Positions 1 to 7,046 are shown, counted from the stretch's first letter. The stretch is 7,046 bases of DNA from a virus (IMGVR_UViG_2609459803_000005); one strand, 5' to 3'. Program-made: numbers and translations. Notes: generated from the sequence alone by a model not told the origin.

Positions 1-537
1 ATGGAACCCCTTCGTGAAATAAGAAATCGGCTGCTTAACGGCTGGCAATTATCAAAAATGCATACTTTTGAAGTGGCTGCCAGGCATCAGTCCTTCGCCC
101 TGGCGGCAGAGGAATTGTCGCTGAGCCCCAGTGCGGTAAGTCACCGTATCAATCAGCTGGAAGAAGAATTGGGCATTCAGTTGTTTGTTCGTTCCCATCG
201 CAAAGTGGAATTAACGCACGAGGGGAAACGTGTTTATTGGGCGCTAAAATCGTCGCTGGATACCCTGAACCAGGAAATTCTTGATATCAAAAATCAGGAG
301 TTATCGGGAACGTTAACTCTGTATTCCCGGCCCTCTATCGCCCAATGCTGGTTGGTGCCCGCATTAGGTGACTTTACACGCCGGTATCTAACAGTAAAAG
401 CCGCCGGGGTATGGGCGGGGGGCATTGAAACACCTTCGGTGGAAACTCCATCGGAAGGCTCTAAATTTTTTGGTTTTGACATGGATAACGAATTCATCAG
501 TGGTTTTGATGTAGGGGCATGGGGAGTATTACTCTGA
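1..537 (+). pseudogene. dsdC: LysR-family transcriptional regulator, dsdC-like (D-serine deaminase activator), N-terminal HTH domain retained, 3' part replaced by unrelated sequence
   Basis: The first ~130 codons carry a classic LysR helix-turn-helix signature (FEVAARHQSFALAAEELSLSPSAVSHRINQLEEELGIQLFVRSHRKVELTHEGKRVY) and match my recollection of E. coli DsdC. After about nt 390-410 the translation (LTVKAAGVWAGGIETPSVETPSEGSKFF...) no longer looks like a LysR co-inducer domain, and the frame stops at 537, whereas LysR regulators are about 300 aa. Symbol assigned from memory. Confidence 0.7.
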
Positions 538-1340
538 TGGCGAAAAATGACTTTAAAGCGTTTGCAACTGATCGAAATGCCAATGTTATGTCGCAGGAGG
601 AATGGGAAGCGTTGCCTGCGCTTATATCCGGATTTACAGCAGGGAAAGCATCCAGTGCGCAAGTCAATAAGGTTATTCGGCAGGCCAGCTTTATTGCTGC
701 AGCTCTGGCCCAGTTTGTAAGTGATAAAACGCAACGGGATGTGCTTGATAATGGTGATCTGCCCGGTTTTGTTGAATTGCTGGGATCGGGGTTTGCTGTT
801 GAATACCTGAGCCGCAAGAATCCGTTTGGTGATATCAAATCGGATGGCACGGTGAAAACAGCTCTCGAAAACCTTGGTTTGGGAGAAGGCTCTGCATTAC
901 CGGTTGGTGTGCCTGTTCCGTGGCCTTCAGCTACACCACCGACAGGCTGGTTGAAATGCAATGGTGCAGCTTTTTCTGCTGAAGAATACCCGGAGCTGGC
1001 AAAGGCTTACCCGACAAATAAATTGCCTGATTTACGTGGTGAGTTTATTCGTGGCTGGGATGATGGGCGTGGAGTGGACAGTGGGCGAGCGTTATTGAGT
1101 GCTCAGAGCGATACGCTGCAAAATATTACAGGTAGCTTTTTGGATATGACCACGGGGCCAAATAATAATACTGTCGGCGCATTTACCTCTTCAACATTGA
1201 CACCAAATCTCGCATCAATTGCGACAGGTGGTACATATAAACAGGCGAATTATTATTTTGATGCATCACGTGTTGCCAGAACATCAACGGAAACACGTGC
1301 GCGAAATATTGCATTTAACTTTATCGTGAGGGCTGCATAA
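519..1340 (+). CDS. Phage tail-fibre protein, C-terminal portion only (5'-truncated remnant: short constant part to ~nt 873 plus variable receptor-binding segment)
   Basis: Tail-fibre C-terminal (collar-type) motif string [54 protein letters not shown]. The same frame has stops at 486-488 and 507-509, so the N-terminal bulk of a normal fibre gene is missing and the ATG at 519 may be fortuitous. The stop overlaps the next gene's start (TAATG at 1338-1342). Confidence 0.8.
862..887. repeat. Left crossover site of the invertible segment (gix/pix-like; internal dyad AAACC-TT-GGTTT)
   Basis: 15 bp TTGGTTTGGGAGAAG at 874-888 is repeated exactly in inverted orientation at 2739-2753. The flanks also partly match (TCGAAAACC versus TCATAAACG in the reverse complement). 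The AAACC-NN-GGTTT layout is as I recall for Gin-family crossover sites. It lies in the codons for LGLGE of the fibre gene. Confidence 0.6.
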
Positions 1341-1942
1341 TGGATAACGCTGTATTAAATAGCGAGCTTATTGCCACGAAGGCGGGGAATATTACCGTCT
1401 ATAGCTATGATGGTGAAACTCGGGAATATATTTCCACTTCAAATGAATATCTTGCCGTTGGTGTTGGTATCCCGGCATATTCCTGTCTGGATGAACCTGG
1501 TATACATAAGGCTGGTTATGCAATCTGCCGTTCGGCAGATTTAAACTCATGGGAATATGTGCCAGACCATCGCGGTGAAATCGTCTATAACACCGAAACG
1601 GGAGACGCCAAAGAAATCACAACTCCGGGTGATTACCCCGAAAATACAACCACTATCGCCCCGTTAACGCCATACGATAAATGGGATGGTGAGAAATGGG
1701 TGACAGACACTGAGGCACAACACAGTGCCGCAGTAGACGCGGCAGAAGCACAGCGCCAGTCACTGATTGATGCAGCAATGGCTTCCATTAGTCTGATTCA
1801 GCTGAAATTACAGGCCGGGCGGAAACTGACGCAGGCAGAAACAACCCGACTTAACGTCGTGCTGGATTACATTGACGCGGTGACGGCAACAGATACCAGC
1901 ACCGCGCCTGATGTCATCTGGCCTGAGCTGCCGGAGGCGTAG
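1340..1942 (+). CDS. Tail-fibre assembly protein (Tfa/U-like chaperone)
   Basis: 200-aa ORF whose start is translationally coupled to the fibre gene (TAATG), with a GTGAGGG Shine-Dalgarno 7 nt upstream. Size and position are typical of Tfa, and the C-terminus carries DTSTAPDVIWP, a motif shared with the convergent second assembly gene. Confidence 0.85.
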   Translation: MDNAVLNSELIATKAGNITVYSYDGETREYISTSNEYLAVGVGIPAYSCLDEPGIHKAGYAICRSADLNSWEYVPDHRGEIVYNTETGDAKEITTPGDYPENTTTIAPLTPYDKWDGEKWVTDTEAQHSAAVDAAEAQRQSLIDAAMASISLIQLKLQAGRKLTQAETTRLNVVLDYIDAVTATDTSTAPDVIWPELPEA

Positions 1943-2357
1943 GCCATTCAATATCGGGTGCTGTTGACGTATCAACACGCATCAGCAGCACACGGTATTT
2001 CTTCCATTGGGTGAGAGTTGAAGTTTCTTCATCAGTTGCGATACCAGCATCAACAGCATCCTGACGCCAGGATATTTCACTGTCAGCTTTTGCACGAAAT
2101 GTGGCTTTCATGTTTTCTGCATCTGATATTTTCTGTTCTGGTGAAAGCGGCGGCTCATCAACCCATGCAAGGGTCCCTGAAACCATTCCCAGCATTTTTC
2201 CTGTTGGCTTATTTCCCCCATTAAATCTGACAGCATCCTCATCGCTGATTTCAATACCATCCTGCGGCCATGTCCCCTCCTTGATATAACTTTCATATAG
2301 CGCTGCGTTGTAGATTGCATTTTCGGACGGGCTGTAAACACTTTTAACTTTATTCAT
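1914..2357 (-). CDS. Alternative tail-fibre assembly protein (U'-like), convergent with the first
   Basis: 147-aa ORF with a GGGAGA Shine-Dalgarno 7 nt before its ATG (2357..2355). It sits directly downstream of the minus-strand alternative fibre segment, whose stop TAA (2364..2362) lies between that Shine-Dalgarno and the ATG. C-terminal DTSTAPDIEWP motif. Its 3' end overlaps the plus-strand assembly gene by 29 bp. Confidence 0.8.
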   Translation of the reverse strand: MNKVKSVYSPSENAIYNAALYESYIKEGTWPQDGIEISDEDAVRFNGGNKPTGKMLGMVSGTLAWVDEPPLSPEQKISDAENMKATFRAKADSEISWRQDAVDAGIATDEETSTLTQWKKYRVLLMRVDTSTAPDIEWPTPPAAQAR

Positions 2358-2361
2358 TCTG

Positions 2362-2748
2362 TTATCTCCCTTTCGCTATATAGCAAAGATTAAACCCACC
2401 GGCGCCTGACATACGGGCTGTAAAACCCGTTCTTGAAGTACCAGTTGAGTTAACTCCATAAGCAGGCATGGTTGCTGGAGAAAGCAGAGACTCCTGGATA
2501 TCTGCCATTGTCAGTGTAATTGATTCGACCCGCGCGGGGAAAGGTAGCGGGAAAACAACATTCGTCCCTGTCTGTCCAACGGGGAAACCGAAAATACCCC
2601 ATTGTGTAATTACCCCATCCGGCCCCTTACTCCATCCAGATTTAGGAATCGGCCAGTCTGCTGCTCCAGAGTGCCCCGTTGTAAAACTACTCATATCTGG
2701 TACTTGCCCGGTATCCGTTCCGACGTTCCTCGTTGCCGCTTCTCCCAA
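2362..2748 (-). CDS. Alternative tail-fibre C-terminal variable segment (Sv'-like), silent in this orientation, expressed only after inversion
   Basis: Minus-strand ORF 2362..2793. Residues 15-18 (GLGE) are encoded by the inverted copy of the crossover repeat, so inversion would fuse the upstream fibre remnant (...ENLGLGE) in frame to this segment. The ORF's first ~14 codons lie outside the invertible segment and are probably not coding. Confidence 0.65.
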   Translation of the reverse strand: MGEAATRNVGTDTGQVPDMSSFTTGHSGAADWPIPKSGWSKGPDGVITQWGIFGFPVGQTGTNVVFPLPFPARVESITLTMADIQESLLSPATMPAYGVNSTGTSRTGFTARMSGAGGFNLCYIAKGR

Positions 2749-2765
2749 ACCAACGTTTATGAAAA
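2740..2765. repeat. Right crossover site of the invertible segment (inverted relative to the left site; internal dyad AAACC-AA-CGTTT)
   Basis: CTTCTCCCAAACCAA at 2739-2753 is the exact reverse complement of 874-888. It lies 55-80 bp upstream of the invertase start, the usual arrangement in Gin/Cin/Pin systems. Confidence 0.6.
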
Positions 2766-2819
2766 TGCAGAAATAACGATCAAATGGCATCATTCCTGCT
2801 TTTGTCAGGGAGATCTACC

Positions 2820-3374
2820 ATGCTTATTGGCTATGTACGTGTGTCAACAAATGACCAGAACACAGATCTACAACGTAATGCGCTGAACTGTGCAGGATGC
2901 GAGCTTATTTTTGAAGACAAGATAAGCGGTACAAAGTCCGAAAGGCCGGGACTGAAAAAACTGCTCAGGACATTATCGGCAGGTGACACTCTGGTCGTCT
3001 GGAAGCTGGATCGGCTGGGGCGTAGTATGCGGCATCTTGTCGTGCTGGTGGAGGAGTTGCGCGAACGAGGCATCAACTTTCGTAGTCTGACGGATTCAAT
3101 TGATACCAGCACACCAATGGGACGCTTTTTCTTTCATGTGATGGGTGCCCTGGCTGAAATGGAGCGTGAACTGATTGTTGAACGAACAAAAGTTGGACTG
3201 GAAGCTGCTCGCGCACAGGGACGAATTGGTGGACGTCGCCCCAAACTTACACCAGAACAATGGGAGCAGGCCGGACGATTAATTGCAGCAGGAATTCCTC
3301 GCCAGAAGGTAGCGATCATCTATGATATTGGTGTATCGACTTTGTATAAGAGGTTTCCAGCCAGGATTATATAA
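2820..3374 (+). CDS. Serine recombinase, DNA invertase of the Gin/Pin/Cin/Hin family
   Basis: N-terminus MLIGYVRVSTNDQNTDLQRNAL carries the catalytic-serine motif (YVRVST), followed by DRLGRS and a C-terminal HTH, in a protein of about 185 aa. GGGAGA Shine-Dalgarno 6 nt upstream of the ATG at 2820. The ORF-track start at 2784 is an in-frame upstream extension without a ribosome-binding site. Closely resembles e14 Pin as I remember it. Confidence 0.92.
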   Translation: MLIGYVRVSTNDQNTDLQRNALNCAGCELIFEDKISGTKSERPGLKKLLRTLSAGDTLVVWKLDRLGRSMRHLVVLVEELRERGINFRSLTDSIDTSTPMGRFFFHVMGALAEMERELIVERTKVGLEAARAQGRIGGRRPKLTPEQWEQAGRLIAAGIPRQKVAIIYDIGVSTLYKRFPARII

Positions 3375-3411
3375 AACCGCAGACACGCCGTATGCAAGAC
3401 GTGCTGCGGTT
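3375..3411 (+). terminator. Stem-loop immediately after the invertase stop codon (possible terminator or RNA-stability element; no U-tract)
   Basis: AACCGCAGACACG ... CGTG-CTGCGGTT forms a stem of about 12-13 bp with one bulge, starting 1 nt after the TAA. No T-run follows, so intrinsic termination is doubtful. Confidence 0.25.
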
Positions 3412-3570
3412 GGCTGATGCACTTTCGAGAGTGTATGTATTGAATTATTTCCAGCCGTTACTGATTTTACGTATTTTTTGTATGAGAGGAGTTGCACCAC
3501 CTCTTAAGCATAATTTGTTAGAATCATGGCAGCACAATAGCCATATATCCAATATAAAATACTTAACCTT

Positions 3571-4470
3571 CTAATCATTATGGAGTATTTGATCGCCGTA
3601 TGGCCAGCCATTTTCCCCAGGAAGGGTCATACCTAACATTGGCATAATACTAAGTTGTCCAATGGTAAATCCTAGAGCACTTGTATTACTGATTCCGGCA
3701 TAGGTCATATCAAGGGGGTTAGACTCTGAGCTGGACATAAAAAGATTTCTTGTGCCAATTCTATTCGCCATTGAGAACTGAATATGCCCACCAATTGTAT
3801 TTACGGTGTCCTGAGATATCCAGTTGTTTAACGCGATAAATGGCGCCCGCCACCAGTTAAGCGTGCCATTCTCAAAACGCCCCCTCGTCATCTCAATATC
3901 TTCCCGAAACTGCTGCTTTCTGTCTCCCAAGACTACCGGGGTACCTGTTGTCAGGTCAAGGCAGTCCTCAATTACAAGATTAGTGGGGTTTGATGGGGTG
4001 TTGTAGATCTTAATGATTTTATGTACCTGTGTTCTGAAACAGAATCCGTAAATAATCATCTCCGTTGCTACAGAACGGGGAAAAAACTGGCCAATATCCA
4101 GTATAAATTTTTCCGCGATTCCCTTTGTTAAAACTGCAATTTCATAAAGACTCGGGTAACTATCATAAGTCAACTCCGGCTGCTGAACATCATAATAATT
4201 AACTTCATGTAATGAAGATAATGATACGGCAAGTAACTCCTTCACATTTATACCGATCATTGTTCCTCCTGCAAAGCCGAAACCAAACTCCATAATTTTT
4301 TCCGGAGATAGACGGTATATGTCATTGGAGCGAATAACTGATACCGGAATCGAGAATAGTTTAGGACAGTGATTTGTCATTACACTTTCATGCTGGGTGA
4401 TTCTTGAGTCGCTTACGGCCCAGATACTTTCCCCTTCTTCCCTGTTTAGCCAGCAGGCTATTGCTGTCAT
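3571..4470 (-). CDS. Hypothetical protein, 299 aa, unknown function (possible Ntn-hydrolase/HslV-like N-terminal region, unverified)
   Basis: Long minus-strand ORF (track 3571..4608). I place the start at the ATG at 4470 because it has a strong AAGGGGG Shine-Dalgarno 6 nt upstream. This gives MTAIACWLNREEGESIWAVSDSRIT... I recognise no family with certainty. Confidence 0.7.
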   Translation of the reverse strand: MTAIACWLNREEGESIWAVSDSRITQHESVMTNHCPKLFSIPVSVIRSNDIYRLSPEKIMEFGFGFAGGTMIGINVKELLAVSLSSLHEVNYYDVQQPELTYDSYPSLYEIAVLTKGIAEKFILDIGQFFPRSVATEMIIYGFCFRTQVHKIIKIYNTPSNPTNLVIEDCLDLTTGTPVVLGDRKQQFREDIEMTRGRFENGTLNWWRAPFIALNNWISQDTVNTIGGHIQFSMANRIGTRNLFMSSSESNPLDMTYAGISNTSALGFTIGQLSIMPMLGMTLPGENGWPYGDQILHND

Positions 4471-4872
4471 TGAAAACCCCCTTTTAAGTAAAAAAATCAG
4501 ATTCAGATAGTGCATACATAATTTAGTCAAGTCATCTCTTTTAAGACGCATTGAGAAATGGTTGCTCAAGGTGCGCCAGTGAACGCGCACGAAAATAACT
4601 TCTTGCATTTCCCATTACACTCTGACTTTAGGGCCGCGTTAGATTTTAACATGGTGGCCGTGCATCCATTTAAATTGGTAATCTGGAGAATGAGTAACGC
4701 TGAATAGATTAACAATCTATGCGACTAACGGCCCTTAAAAGCGCAGCTCATAACATCGAATTTTACCAGTTTAGTCATTTTTAAAAAGTGCCCGAAAAAT
4801 GTTGTCCACGATTTGTGCTCTACGTCCCATCTTGACCTACTCCCTGATAATTCACTCAGAAGGCGGTTAGCA

Positions 4873-4900
4873 ATGTCCGTTAAGTGCTCACAACGGACAT
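4873..4900. promoter_or_regulatory. Perfect 9-bp inverted repeat (ATGTCCGTT-N10-AACGGACAT) inside the cargo-cassette spacer; candidate operator or RNA hairpin
   Basis: Directly visible dyad symmetry. It lies between the two cargo genes, inside the questionable 78-aa ORF. Confidence 0.3.
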
Positions 4901-4951
4901 TCAGCCCACTAAATCCGACCGTGTCGCTCAATATGCGGACAGGTTGTAGTG

Positions 4952-5554
4952 CTAACTGCATTGTAGCTGTGAGATTTCACCATCGATGGCTTCTATAACC
5001 TGTTTATAGCGGAGCATGACCTCATCATGAATCATCATTAATCCGCGGCCGTACTCTGTGGCTAGGATTGTGTATCTTTTCAGGTGTGCAAGATGTTCTT
5101 TGTTGCCAGTAATGTCACTTGCAACCTGCGTGGAGTCCAGCCGTTCGATAAGCGCATTATTGCCGCGATAGGAATCAATTAGGCTTCTTGCGCTTGTATA
5201 AAAAGCCACAATTTTTGAGAGTGTTTCTCTATGAACTTCAGGTAGGGATGCCGAGTTGGCTTCATAGAACGTGAAGTAGTTTTGAGTAATGGGGAAAATG
5301 TTATCGAACGGTGAGTTCCGGTCGTATTTTTCGATTTCTTCTGCCATTCTGGCCTGATACAGTTTAATCAGTGAGTCTATTTCCTCTCTGACACCCAATA
5401 GCGTTGTTATACGCTTCTCTCTGGCCGCTGTTGCCTGCTGTTTTGCCTGCTGTTTCACCTGAGTTGTCACTCCTATCATCGTGAAACAGCCACCTAAAAG
5501 AGCTGCTAAAAATGCGGAGATGAGATCTGAATATTCGTGCCAGAAGGTTAGCAT
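4952..5554 (-). CDS. Hypothetical membrane-anchored protein, 200 aa (one N-terminal hydrophobic helix, then a charged, probably helical domain)
   Basis: Minus-strand ORF whose N-terminus has a hydrophobic stretch (LISAFLAALLGGCFTMIGV), followed by a K/Q/E/R-rich segment. No convincing Shine-Dalgarno before the first ATG (5554). An alternative internal start at 5479 has an AGGTGG upstream but would remove part of the hydrophobic helix, so the start is uncertain. Confidence 0.65.
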   Translation of the reverse strand: MLTFWHEYSDLISAFLAALLGGCFTMIGVTTQVKQQAKQQATAAREKRITTLLGVREEIDSLIKLYQARMAEEIEKYDRNSPFDNIFPITQNYFTFYEANSASLPEVHRETLSKIVAFYTSARSLIDSYRGNNALIERLDSTQVASDITGNKEHLAHLKRYTILATEYGRGLMMIHDEVMLRYKQVIEAIDGEISQLQCS

Positions 5555-5565
5555 GGCGAAAATTC

Positions 5566-5588
5566 CATTGGGTTAAATTATGTCTATT
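5566..5588. promoter_or_regulatory. Perfect palindrome GGTTAAAT-N7-ATTTAACC 12 bp upstream of the first cargo gene; candidate operator overlapping a -10-like hexamer (CATAAT on the minus strand, 5572-5577)
   Basis: Exact 8-bp inverted repeat read from the sequence. AT-rich, so more likely a protein-binding site than a stable hairpin. Confidence 0.3.
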
Positions 5589-5888
5589 TAACCACATAAT
5601 GATACGAAGATACCTTCCAAAATGTTGCTATGACCCCATCTGTTGTTGCCTGGCTGGTGACGTGTCTGGGTATTAGCACCGTGCTCTCTCATTATCTAAG
5701 TCTGGGCCAATCCTCGTTCATAACAGGCATTCACTTCAGTCATGGCAGAAAGGTATGCATGCTGGAGAAGTCATGAAAGAAAAGAAGACTTCTGCCTCGT
5801 TTGTCATCACTGTTATCTTCTCATTGATTATGCAGGTCATAGTGGGGACACACAAAGCTTTGTACTATCCGATAGTGGTTAAGGTGGA

Positions 5889-7046
5889 TCACTCCACCTT
5901 TTCATCAAGCCAATCCGCCCACCACTGCATCATTTCTCTGCGCTTATCGAGATACTGAGCATGGTTGTAAATACCGCGCACAGATCCGCCGTTGGCATGT
6001 GCCAGTTGCACTTCAATAGCGTCAGCAGGCCATTCGTGCTCGTTCATAATCGTGCTGAATTCATGCCTGAATCCGTGACCGCTTTCCAGACCCTCATAGC
6101 CGATTTGTTTGATCACAAGTAGCACCGCGTTCTCGCAAATTGGCTTCTTCTTATCGTTGCGCCCGGAAAAAACAAACTCTGATACTGGTTTAGTGATTGA
6201 GCTTAGTGTAGTGAGAAGTTCAACCACCTGGTCTGACATCGGGACCACATGAATTTTGCGTCCCTTCATTACACTGGCGTCGATGGTGATAATCCTGTTT
6301 TCAAAATCGACGTTCTTCCATAGCATGGAGCGAAGCTCTTTCGTTCTTAGGGCTGTGTAGCGCAAAACTTTAGTCGCAATGAGCGATACGATACTTCCTG
6401 AAAATGTTGCCAGTGCTTTATTGAATGCCGGGATCTGGTCTGCAGGAAGAAACGGGAAGTTTTTCTTGCGGTATCCCTTCATGGCGTCAGCAAGGTCAGG
6501 TGCCGGGTTATATTTAGCCCTACCAGTGACAATAGCGTAACGGAAAACCTCGCCGCATCTTCTGCGGGCTTTATTTGCTCGCTCCATTGCACCGCGATCT
6601 TCAAATCTGCGGATTACTTCCAGCAGTTGCATCGGCTCAATCTCCTGAATTTCAAGGCCGCCGATGATAGGTAAAATGTCGTCATCAAACATTTTTGCAA
6701 GTTCAGTCGCATACCCTACTGACCATACTTGCTTCTTGTGCTCGTACCATTCCTTGTAAATCGCACTAAATGAATTGTTGTTAGACGAAGCCTTTTTCGC
6801 CTTTACCGGATCGATGCCAACCGAGATGTCTTTCCTCGCAGTCCATGCCTTATCCCTTGCTTCCTGCAAAGTCATAAGCGGATATTTTCCGACGGTCAGG
6901 ATTTTCTCCTTACCGTCAATCTTGTAGCGAAGCTGCCATACCTTTTTCCCGGATACAGGAACATAAAGGTACAGGCCATTACCATCGAGAAGGCGGTATG
7001 GTTTTTCTTTCGGCTTTGCTGCTTCAATCTGCTTAACGGTGAGCAT
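5889..7046 (-). CDS. intS: Tyrosine recombinase, P4-type prophage integrase (IntS-like, CPS-53/KpLE1 family)
   Basis: Complete 385-aa ORF. Tyrosine-recombinase catalytic residues are visible near the C-terminus (HGFRHEFST with H-x-x-R, and VRGIYNHAQY with the catalytic Tyr). The start codon is the last triplet of the window, so the expected tRNA attachment site lies outside it. Symbol inferred from the dsdC-proximal context and my memory of K-12 IntS. Confidence 0.88.
   Translation of the reverse strand: MLTVKQIEAAKPKEKPYRLLDGNGLYLYVPVSGKKVWQLRYKIDGKEKILTVGKYPLMTLQEARDKAWTARKDISVGIDPVKAKKASSNNNSFSAIYKEWYEHKKQVWSVGYATELAKMFDDDILPIIGGLEIQEIEPMQLLEVIRRFEDRGAMERANKARRRCGEVFRYAIVTGRAKYNPAPDLADAMKGYRKKNFPFLPADQIPAFNKALATFSGSIVSLIATKVLRYTALRTKELRSMLWKNVDFENRIITIDASVMKGRKIHVVPMSDQVVELLTTLSSITKPVSEFVFSGRNDKKKPICENAVLLVIKQIGYEGLESGHGFRHEFSTIMNEHEWPADAIEVQLAHANGGSVRGIYNHAQYLDKRREMMQWWADWLDEKVE

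Follow-up and report, generated by a model that had tools for sequence, protein, structure and literature searches.

Identity of the locus

The locus raises the question of why a complete DNA-inversion switch should be kept on a tail-fibre gene that looks too short to work, in a prophage from which most genes are gone. An earlier note on this DNA had read the fibre gene as decapitated and the switch as either a relic or a co-opted device, and both of these options are still the live ones for the switch.

The window (the whole stretch analysed, IMGVR_UViG_2609459803_000005, 7,046 nt) was divided into its parts by means of Pfam and annotated relatives (Table 1). It is very probably the 6.8-kb surviving arm of a Brunovirus-like (SEN34-like) temperate myovirus that was integrated at the tRNA gene argW of E. 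coli, with the short fibre gene and the switch intact and about 40 kb of prophage deleted. Everything downstream of the deletion junction is intact, namely the fibre gene, the invertible segment, pin, two cargo genes and intS. The identity to dsdC, together with dsdX and dsdA upstream of the dsdC fragment in carrier contig L006, places the window in the argW-dsdCXA island, in the direction opposite to that of K-12. The complete head, tail, baseplate and regulatory genes and the two att sites that mark an intact Brunovirus-like prophage were not found here. The locus belongs to a kind of element that is already known: it is a cryptic remnant like e14, and its P segment is active.

Table 1. Features of the window, with positions counted from its first letter.
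Feature	Position	Strand	Evidence
Host dsdC 5' fragment, codons 1-129	1..388	+	Identity to K-12 dsdC through 388; HTH_1 domain
Deletion junction, microhomology GGTATC, 6 bp	383..388	.	Shared by dsdC and phage wedge gene
DUF2612 baseplate-wedge gene, last 49 codons and stop	389..537	+	Near-identical to Eco_23-2667 and S51 prophages
Tail-fibre gene, complete, 267 aa, collar-type C-terminus	537..1340	+	Shared start and TGATG overlap; collar domain
Constant (N-terminal) fibre region at its native length, 112 codons	537..873	+	98% to vB_EcoM-611R5 fibre; PHROG 11303
Left crossover site pixL, central TT 874-875	862..887	.	Identical to e14 left site
Invertible segment, 1878 bp	875..2752	.	In silico flip gives L006, L008 and L017, single SNPs elsewhere excepted
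Tail-fibre assembly gene, partner of the collar-type C-terminus, 200 aa	1340..1942	+	Caudo_TAP; 180/200 to e14 TfaE
Second tail-fibre assembly gene, partner of the alternative C-terminus, 147 aa	1914..2357	-	Caudo_TAP; annotation of L001 agrees
Alternative fibre C-terminus, gp53-like, 143-aa ORF as read	2362..2793	-	Gp53-like_C domain
Right crossover site pixR, central AA 2752-2753	2740..2765	.	Identical to e14 right site
pin, serine DNA invertase, 184 aa	2820..3374	+	Resolvase and HTH_7; 176/184 to K-12 PinE
Two cargo genes (3571-4608 and 4952-5554) between pin and intS	3571..5554	-	
intS, P4-type integrase beside argW	5889..7046	-	Integrase domains; tRNA-Arg adjoining in L001, S51 and GPT24-02

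Origin of the remnant

The window is identical to K-12 dsdC up to 388, and its match to phage DNA (the prophages of strains Eco_23-2667 and S51) begins at 383, so that the junction is the 6-bp microhomology GGTATC. The ORF that results (1-537, 178 aa) encodes DsdC residues 1-129 followed, in frame, by the 49 C-terminal residues of the wedge protein, and this fusion protein has been deposited as KDT73428.1 and KDU09644.1. It keeps the LysR-type HTH of DsdC and has lost the effector domain. By these alignments, it is the prophage that is truncated and not the fibre gene, the wedge gene having been cut and fused to dsdC.

A single deletion at the microhomology took the distal att site and the genes for head, tail, baseplate, lysis and regulation, and the same event took the 3' part of host dsdC. 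The loss is estimated at about 40 kb, on the assumption that the ancestor was like the S51 prophage. This prophage is flanked by two copies of the argW att core (CTGCAGGGGACACCA at 2909 and 45996 of its locus), with 43 kb from one to the other, and has full regulatory, lysis, head, tail and baseplate sets. The 20-kb remnant locus L006 has the 15-bp core once, at 17208, as the argW copy; no partner att site for IntS was found in this locus, and IntS itself is intact. The remnant is able neither to excise nor to make particles. In this respect the earlier note was right, as it had placed the cassette in a context that could not build a fibre-bearing particle; the rest of the prophage is deleted.

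In carrier strains, the deletion knocks out dsdC, the regulator for D-serine. With dsdX and dsdA intact upstream, these strains are expected to have lost D-serine induction.

The exact fusion protein was retrieved from 13 contigs by protein look-up, in two NCBI assemblies and several sequencing runs. The dsdC-phage junction was absent from 5,426 complete E. coli genomes, and an exact-match scan of species-representative genomes for the junction gave no match. Since no complete E. coli genome covers the junction, the remnant is rare. Its carriers are 0-1 SNPs apart, and only two SNPs were seen among them. One, at 3193, falls in pin codon 125 (V125 in the window; A125, as in K-12 PinE, in the ERR33288xx runs), and the other, at 5896, falls in intS codon 384 (V384 in the window; G384 in GCA_000700245.1).

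Relic or co-opted switch

No virion can be built from the locus, and the simplest view of the switch is therefore that it is a recent relic, comparable to the P segment of the cryptic prophage e14. With carriers this close to one another and a junction this rare, intact ORFs are expected without selection, which makes a recent relic the default.

Co-option of the orphan switch by the host is the strongest of the alternatives, and an unlikely one. The switch could serve as a receptor-masking or anti-phage phase-variable module like PinQ/StfE2, its invertase could act in trans on other prophage segments, or it could donate alternative fibres to a co-resident Brunovirus-like prophage. The first of these has a precedent. 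PinQ is reported to act in trans on the e14 P segment, and the inversion to give rise to StfE2, which consists of a stfE leader and a gp53-like C-terminus and is reported to block adsorption of T2 (Kirigo et al. 2025, PMC12529663). The window ORF at 2362-2793 (-) is built like StfE2, with a leader (MMPFDRYFCIFINVGLGE, compared with MPFACYFFIFINVGLGE in e14) followed by a gp53-like C-terminus. However, its gp53-like domain is just 28/129 identical to the counterpart in e14 StfP. For the second form, trans action is reported in the invertase family, by PinQ on e14 (PMC12529663) and in the title of a reference listed in PMC4272514. The five ORFs of the switch are all intact and the segment flips, but intactness needs no selection in a remnant that is both rare and recent (13 contigs, 0/5,426 complete E. 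coli genomes, 0-1 SNPs).

Transcription from the host side would be a further point for co-option. The fibre ATG overlaps the stop of the ORF that begins at the dsdC start codon, and a promoter and terminator scan of 1-3600 detected no + strand terminator-like site between them, ahead of the fibre gene; on these grounds, transcription of the phage genes may now start at the dsdC promoter. The promoter and terminator counts of the same scan were no better than those of shuffles, and otherwise lend expression no support in either direction. A more specific form of co-option, with a still smaller probability, would be a domesticated phase-variable module on the host dsdC promoter, with transcription and translational coupling extending through the DsdC-wedge fusion ORF to the fibre and chaperone genes. 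Flipping by Pin would then toggle the receptor-binding protein that is made; susceptibility to other phages would change, as is reported for e14 StfE2, or a co-resident prophage would be re-armed. If co-option were true, recombinase-activated phage inhibition would extend beyond e14. A recent relic remains the reading that we prefer.

The fibre gene and its native length

The claim that the fibre gene is decapitated started from correct observations. The fibre frame is closed upstream by TAA at 486-488 and TGA at 507-509; it is open from 519 to 1340 (frame 3), and 519-873 amounts to 118 codons ahead of the left crossover site, as had been said. The ATG at 537 is the more likely start, which reduces the count to 112 codons. 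GGAG lies 10 nt 5' of this ATG, and the stop of the upstream wedge gene (TGA 535-537) overlaps it (cTGATGg).

Intact relatives have the same arrangement. The window aligns near-perfectly with the intact prophage of strain Eco_23-2667 from 383 through the left crossover site, both stops included. These stops are triplets in a frame that the DUF2612 gene does not use, and they are conserved base for base within that gene in intact prophages. The DUF2612 baseplate-wedge gene is 681 nt long in the prophages of Eco_23-2667 and S51. The wedge/fibre junction TATTACTCTGATGGCGAAAA was found in the prophages of Eco_23-2667, S51 and GPT24-02 and in phage vB_EcoM-611R5, and Salmonella phage SEN34 carries it with two base differences. 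In all five of these relatives, the fibre starts at the ATG equivalent to 537, right after the DUF2612 stop. The comparison with intact relatives that had been proposed for sizing a missing 5' portion accordingly revealed none. Their fibres have lengths of 270 aa (prophage of Eco_23-2667), 277 aa (argW prophage of S51), 263 aa (argW prophage of GPT24-02), 264 aa (vB_EcoM-611R5) and 381 aa (SEN34, a Brunovirus).

Protein comparisons gave matching results at both ends of the fibre. Residues 1-122 align to profile positions 1-122 of PHROG family 11303, the constant region is 98% identical to residues 1-117 of the vB_EcoM-611R5 fibre, and in the best-matching phage records the constant module begins at the boundary with the upstream gene. 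The C-terminus (a 12-residue end) agrees with that of full-length homologues, and both alternative C-termini end likewise. In a homologue search with the 117-aa constant region, nearly all matches were partial proteins (<=205 aa), which are unsuited to a length distribution. Many homologues of the constant region stop at residues 112-113, that is, at the crossover site; mixed orientations or simply repeats could explain this.

Phage 923, whose best match is vB_EcoM-683R1 and whose nearest ICTV exemplar is SEN34, shows spontaneous induction, forms plaques and is a myovirus by electron microscopy (PMC12945033), which indicates that phages of the vB_EcoM-683R1 kind are viable. The characterised phage SfV has a 216-aa "short tail fiber", and it has the 26 residues directly before the crossover site in common with the window fibre.

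By these alignments, the constant part is natively about 112 codons long in the Brunovirus-like lineage, where fibres have by nature only about 265 residues, and the fibre gene is complete. A short constant region preceded by stops is no sign of a broken fibre gene in Brunovirus-like, SfV-like and e14-like phages, where native fibres have 210-380 residues.

The reading in which the fibre gene itself lost its 5' part, leaving a usable fibre in neither orientation, is very improbable. Besides the closed frame, it can draw on the invertible fibres of the Mu, P1 and P2 types, whose constant parts are far longer; the fibre of the P2-like phage 500465-1 has 502 aa and the same variable cassette. However, the likeness to the P2-like fibre is limited to the variable part, and the PHROG 11303 alignment begins at profile position 1. 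We regard this reading as refuted because intact prophages and phages of the same lineage have the identical ATG start and the identical upstream stops. Derivation of the constant region from a cut-down P2-type shaft was also considered and rejected, as the likeness starts only at the variable cassette. The idea of decapitation probably arose from the long constant regions of Mu, P1 or P2.

Crossover sites, invertase and proposed inversion mechanism

The left crossover site (862-887, CTCTCGAAAACCTTGGTTTGGGAGAA) and its inverted partner (2740-2765, TTCTCCCAAACCAACGTTTATGAAAA) are 26-bp sites of the form TTCTCCCAAACC-NN-GGTTT, with the conserved core AAACC-NN-GGTTT. They are identical to pixL and pixR of e14, and the inverted repeats at the segment ends are 20 bp long. 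A pattern search of the window with the 19-nt core gave two matches, just these two sites, with 0.00 expected by chance. One site lies inside the fibre ORF, and the two Caudo_TAP assembly genes stand in opposite orientations, one for each C-terminus.

The fibre ORF encodes 267 aa as read and 242 aa after reverse-complementing 875-2752, when the constant region is followed by the gp53-like C-terminus. Gene calls in carrier loci L006 and L017 include this 242-aa product. The contention that no full-length fibre is possible in either orientation does not agree with these two complete ORFs. As read, the gp53-like ORF (2362-2793) consists of a short leader outside pixR and the C-terminus. The C at 873 is unmoved in flipped copies, which leaves 874-888 for the exchange and agrees with the position of the central TT (874-875).

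Pin has a Resolvase domain (E 6e-51), an HTH_7 domain and the motif YVRVSTNDQ in its 184 aa. It is 96% identical to PinE of K-12 (176/184), with every difference after residue 124, and the first 373 nt of pin have five differences from K-12 pinE, all synonymous. That the invertase and both sites are intact had been noted before and is confirmed by the length and domains of the ORF and by the identity of the sites to those of e14.

The mechanism can be proposed from the Hin/Gin/Cin/Pin family. Pin dimers would bind the two pix sites, and a Fis-bound enhancer in the 5' part of the invertase gene would aid the synaptic complex. Ser10 would then make staggered cuts at the central TT/AA dinucleotide, the subunits would rotate and the DNA would be religated. 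In this way, the 151-residue collar-type C-terminus would be exchanged for the 126-residue gp53-like one, the 116-residue N-terminus remaining unchanged.

Inversion after the deletion

Both orientations occur among carriers of the junction. The window orientation is that of GCA_000700425.1 (identical to the window across the 3,537 bases compared), SRR1186636 and ERR3328832, and the flipped orientation is that of GCA_000700245.1, SRR1186469 and ERR3328823. An in silico flip of 875-2752 reproduces the flipped contigs, single SNPs elsewhere excepted. ERR3328832 and ERR3328823 have the private SNP at 3193 in common, and the flip of 875-2752 is the sole difference between them. Each of the two Pin alleles, V125 and A125, occurs with both segment orientations. 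As the deletion junction is unique, the flips postdate the deletion and happened at least twice. The comparison of assemblies argues that the segment inverted after the deletion, with the resident Pin or another invertase as the possible agent. The contig of ERR10419864 ends at 888, the last base common to both orientations; this is what a mixed population would give and suggests one, although it is no proof.

The chance that assembly errors produced the dsdC-phage junction or the differences in orientation is negligible. The junction is missing from every complete E. coli genome searched and also from the species-representative set, but 13 contigs, drawn from two NCBI assemblies and a number of independent sequencing runs, have it in identical form, and with repeats of just 20 bp an assembler should be unable to place the 1.9-kb segment either way without site-spanning reads.

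Cargo genes and sister prophages

No Pfam, PHROG or NCBIfam match was detected for the two cargo genes (3571-4608 and 4952-5554). The 200-aa cargo protein has a marginal ZorB-like match in PADLOC (E 0.002). The two genes are a candidate moron or defence pair in the hot spot between fibre and integrase. Copies of the cargo region (3377-5866) with 99% identity were found in other E. coli chromosomes. Plasmid pSM107_MCR carries a further copy, which follows tail-fibre and assembly genes at a distance of about 1.8 kb, one other gene lying between. In K-12 CPS-53, gtrABS holds the position that the cargo genes hold here.

The 26 residues before the crossover site (window 810-887) are 100% common to the short tail fibres of SfV, SfII, SfIV and SfI. 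The same linker is nearly identical in e14 StfP, and the N-termini are otherwise unrelated. In strain NADC1036, the SfV-like argW prophage matches window 810-7046 with 100% identity, the flip excepted. A linker common to otherwise unrelated N-termini, together with this identity, points to a mosaic joint just upstream of pixL, and to an arm of cassette, pin, cargo and intS that moves between phage families.

The argW prophage of GPT24-02 has decayed in the opposite way to the remnant. The annotation gives it intact genes for baseplate, wedge and fibre, but its invertase is a 123-nt pseudogene (L013 5493-5615) and its cargo region contains an IS3 fragment.

Comparison with known systems

The Mu G segment with Gin, the P1 C segment with Cin and the P2-like fibres resemble the window in their serine invertase family and in that the fibre C-terminus and the chaperone paired with it are exchanged as one unit. 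Over about 60 residues, the window has nearly the same variable cassette as the P2-like phage 500465-1. In contrast, the constant regions of the Mu, P1 and P2-like systems comprise several hundred residues (about 349 in 500465-1) and are unrelated to that of the window fibre.

PinQ/StfE2 is likewise a fibre inversion module of a cryptic prophage, and in both cases the ORF next to pin consists of a short leader and a gp53-like C-terminus. The gp53-like domain of the window is divergent, however, and its invertase is PinE-like and not PinQ-like.

The Brunovirus-like myoviruses (SEN34; vB_EcoM-611R5, -683R1 and -606R2; the S51 and GPT24-02 prophages) share with the window the overlap of the DUF2612 end with the fibre ATG. 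The N-terminal module of the fibre is 98% identical to that of the vB_EcoM phages and 67% identical to that of SEN34 over the first 90 residues, and the S51 and GPT24-02 prophages also have the argW attachment site with intS. Whereas these relatives have whole genomes of 33-43 kb, the remnant is the fibre-to-integrase arm only; SEN34 differs further in being without an invertase.

Of the known systems, the one nearest to the window is the P segment of e14 with PinE; this segment is documented to invert within a defective prophage (PMC4272514; PMC12529663). The 26-bp crossover sites of the two are identical, and the proteins show identities of 96% (Pin and PinE) and 90% (the TfaE-like chaperone). 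The order of parts is the same, with a constant region, a variable C-terminus and its chaperone, an inverted second pair and then pin. The constant region is short in both, e14 StfP having 209 aa in total, and in both a defective prophage harbours a segment that still inverts. They differ in that the constant region and the wedge gene are of the DUF2612/Brunovirus type in the window and of the YmfQ/Mu-gp48 type in e14, and in that e14 lies at icd and the remnant at argW-dsdC. The remnant is also smaller (6.8 kb) and fused to a host gene, and its gp53-like variable domain represents another allele (28/129 identical). As in e14, an inversion switch has here outlived its phage, and the uniqueness of the deletion junction allows the flips to be placed later than the deletion.
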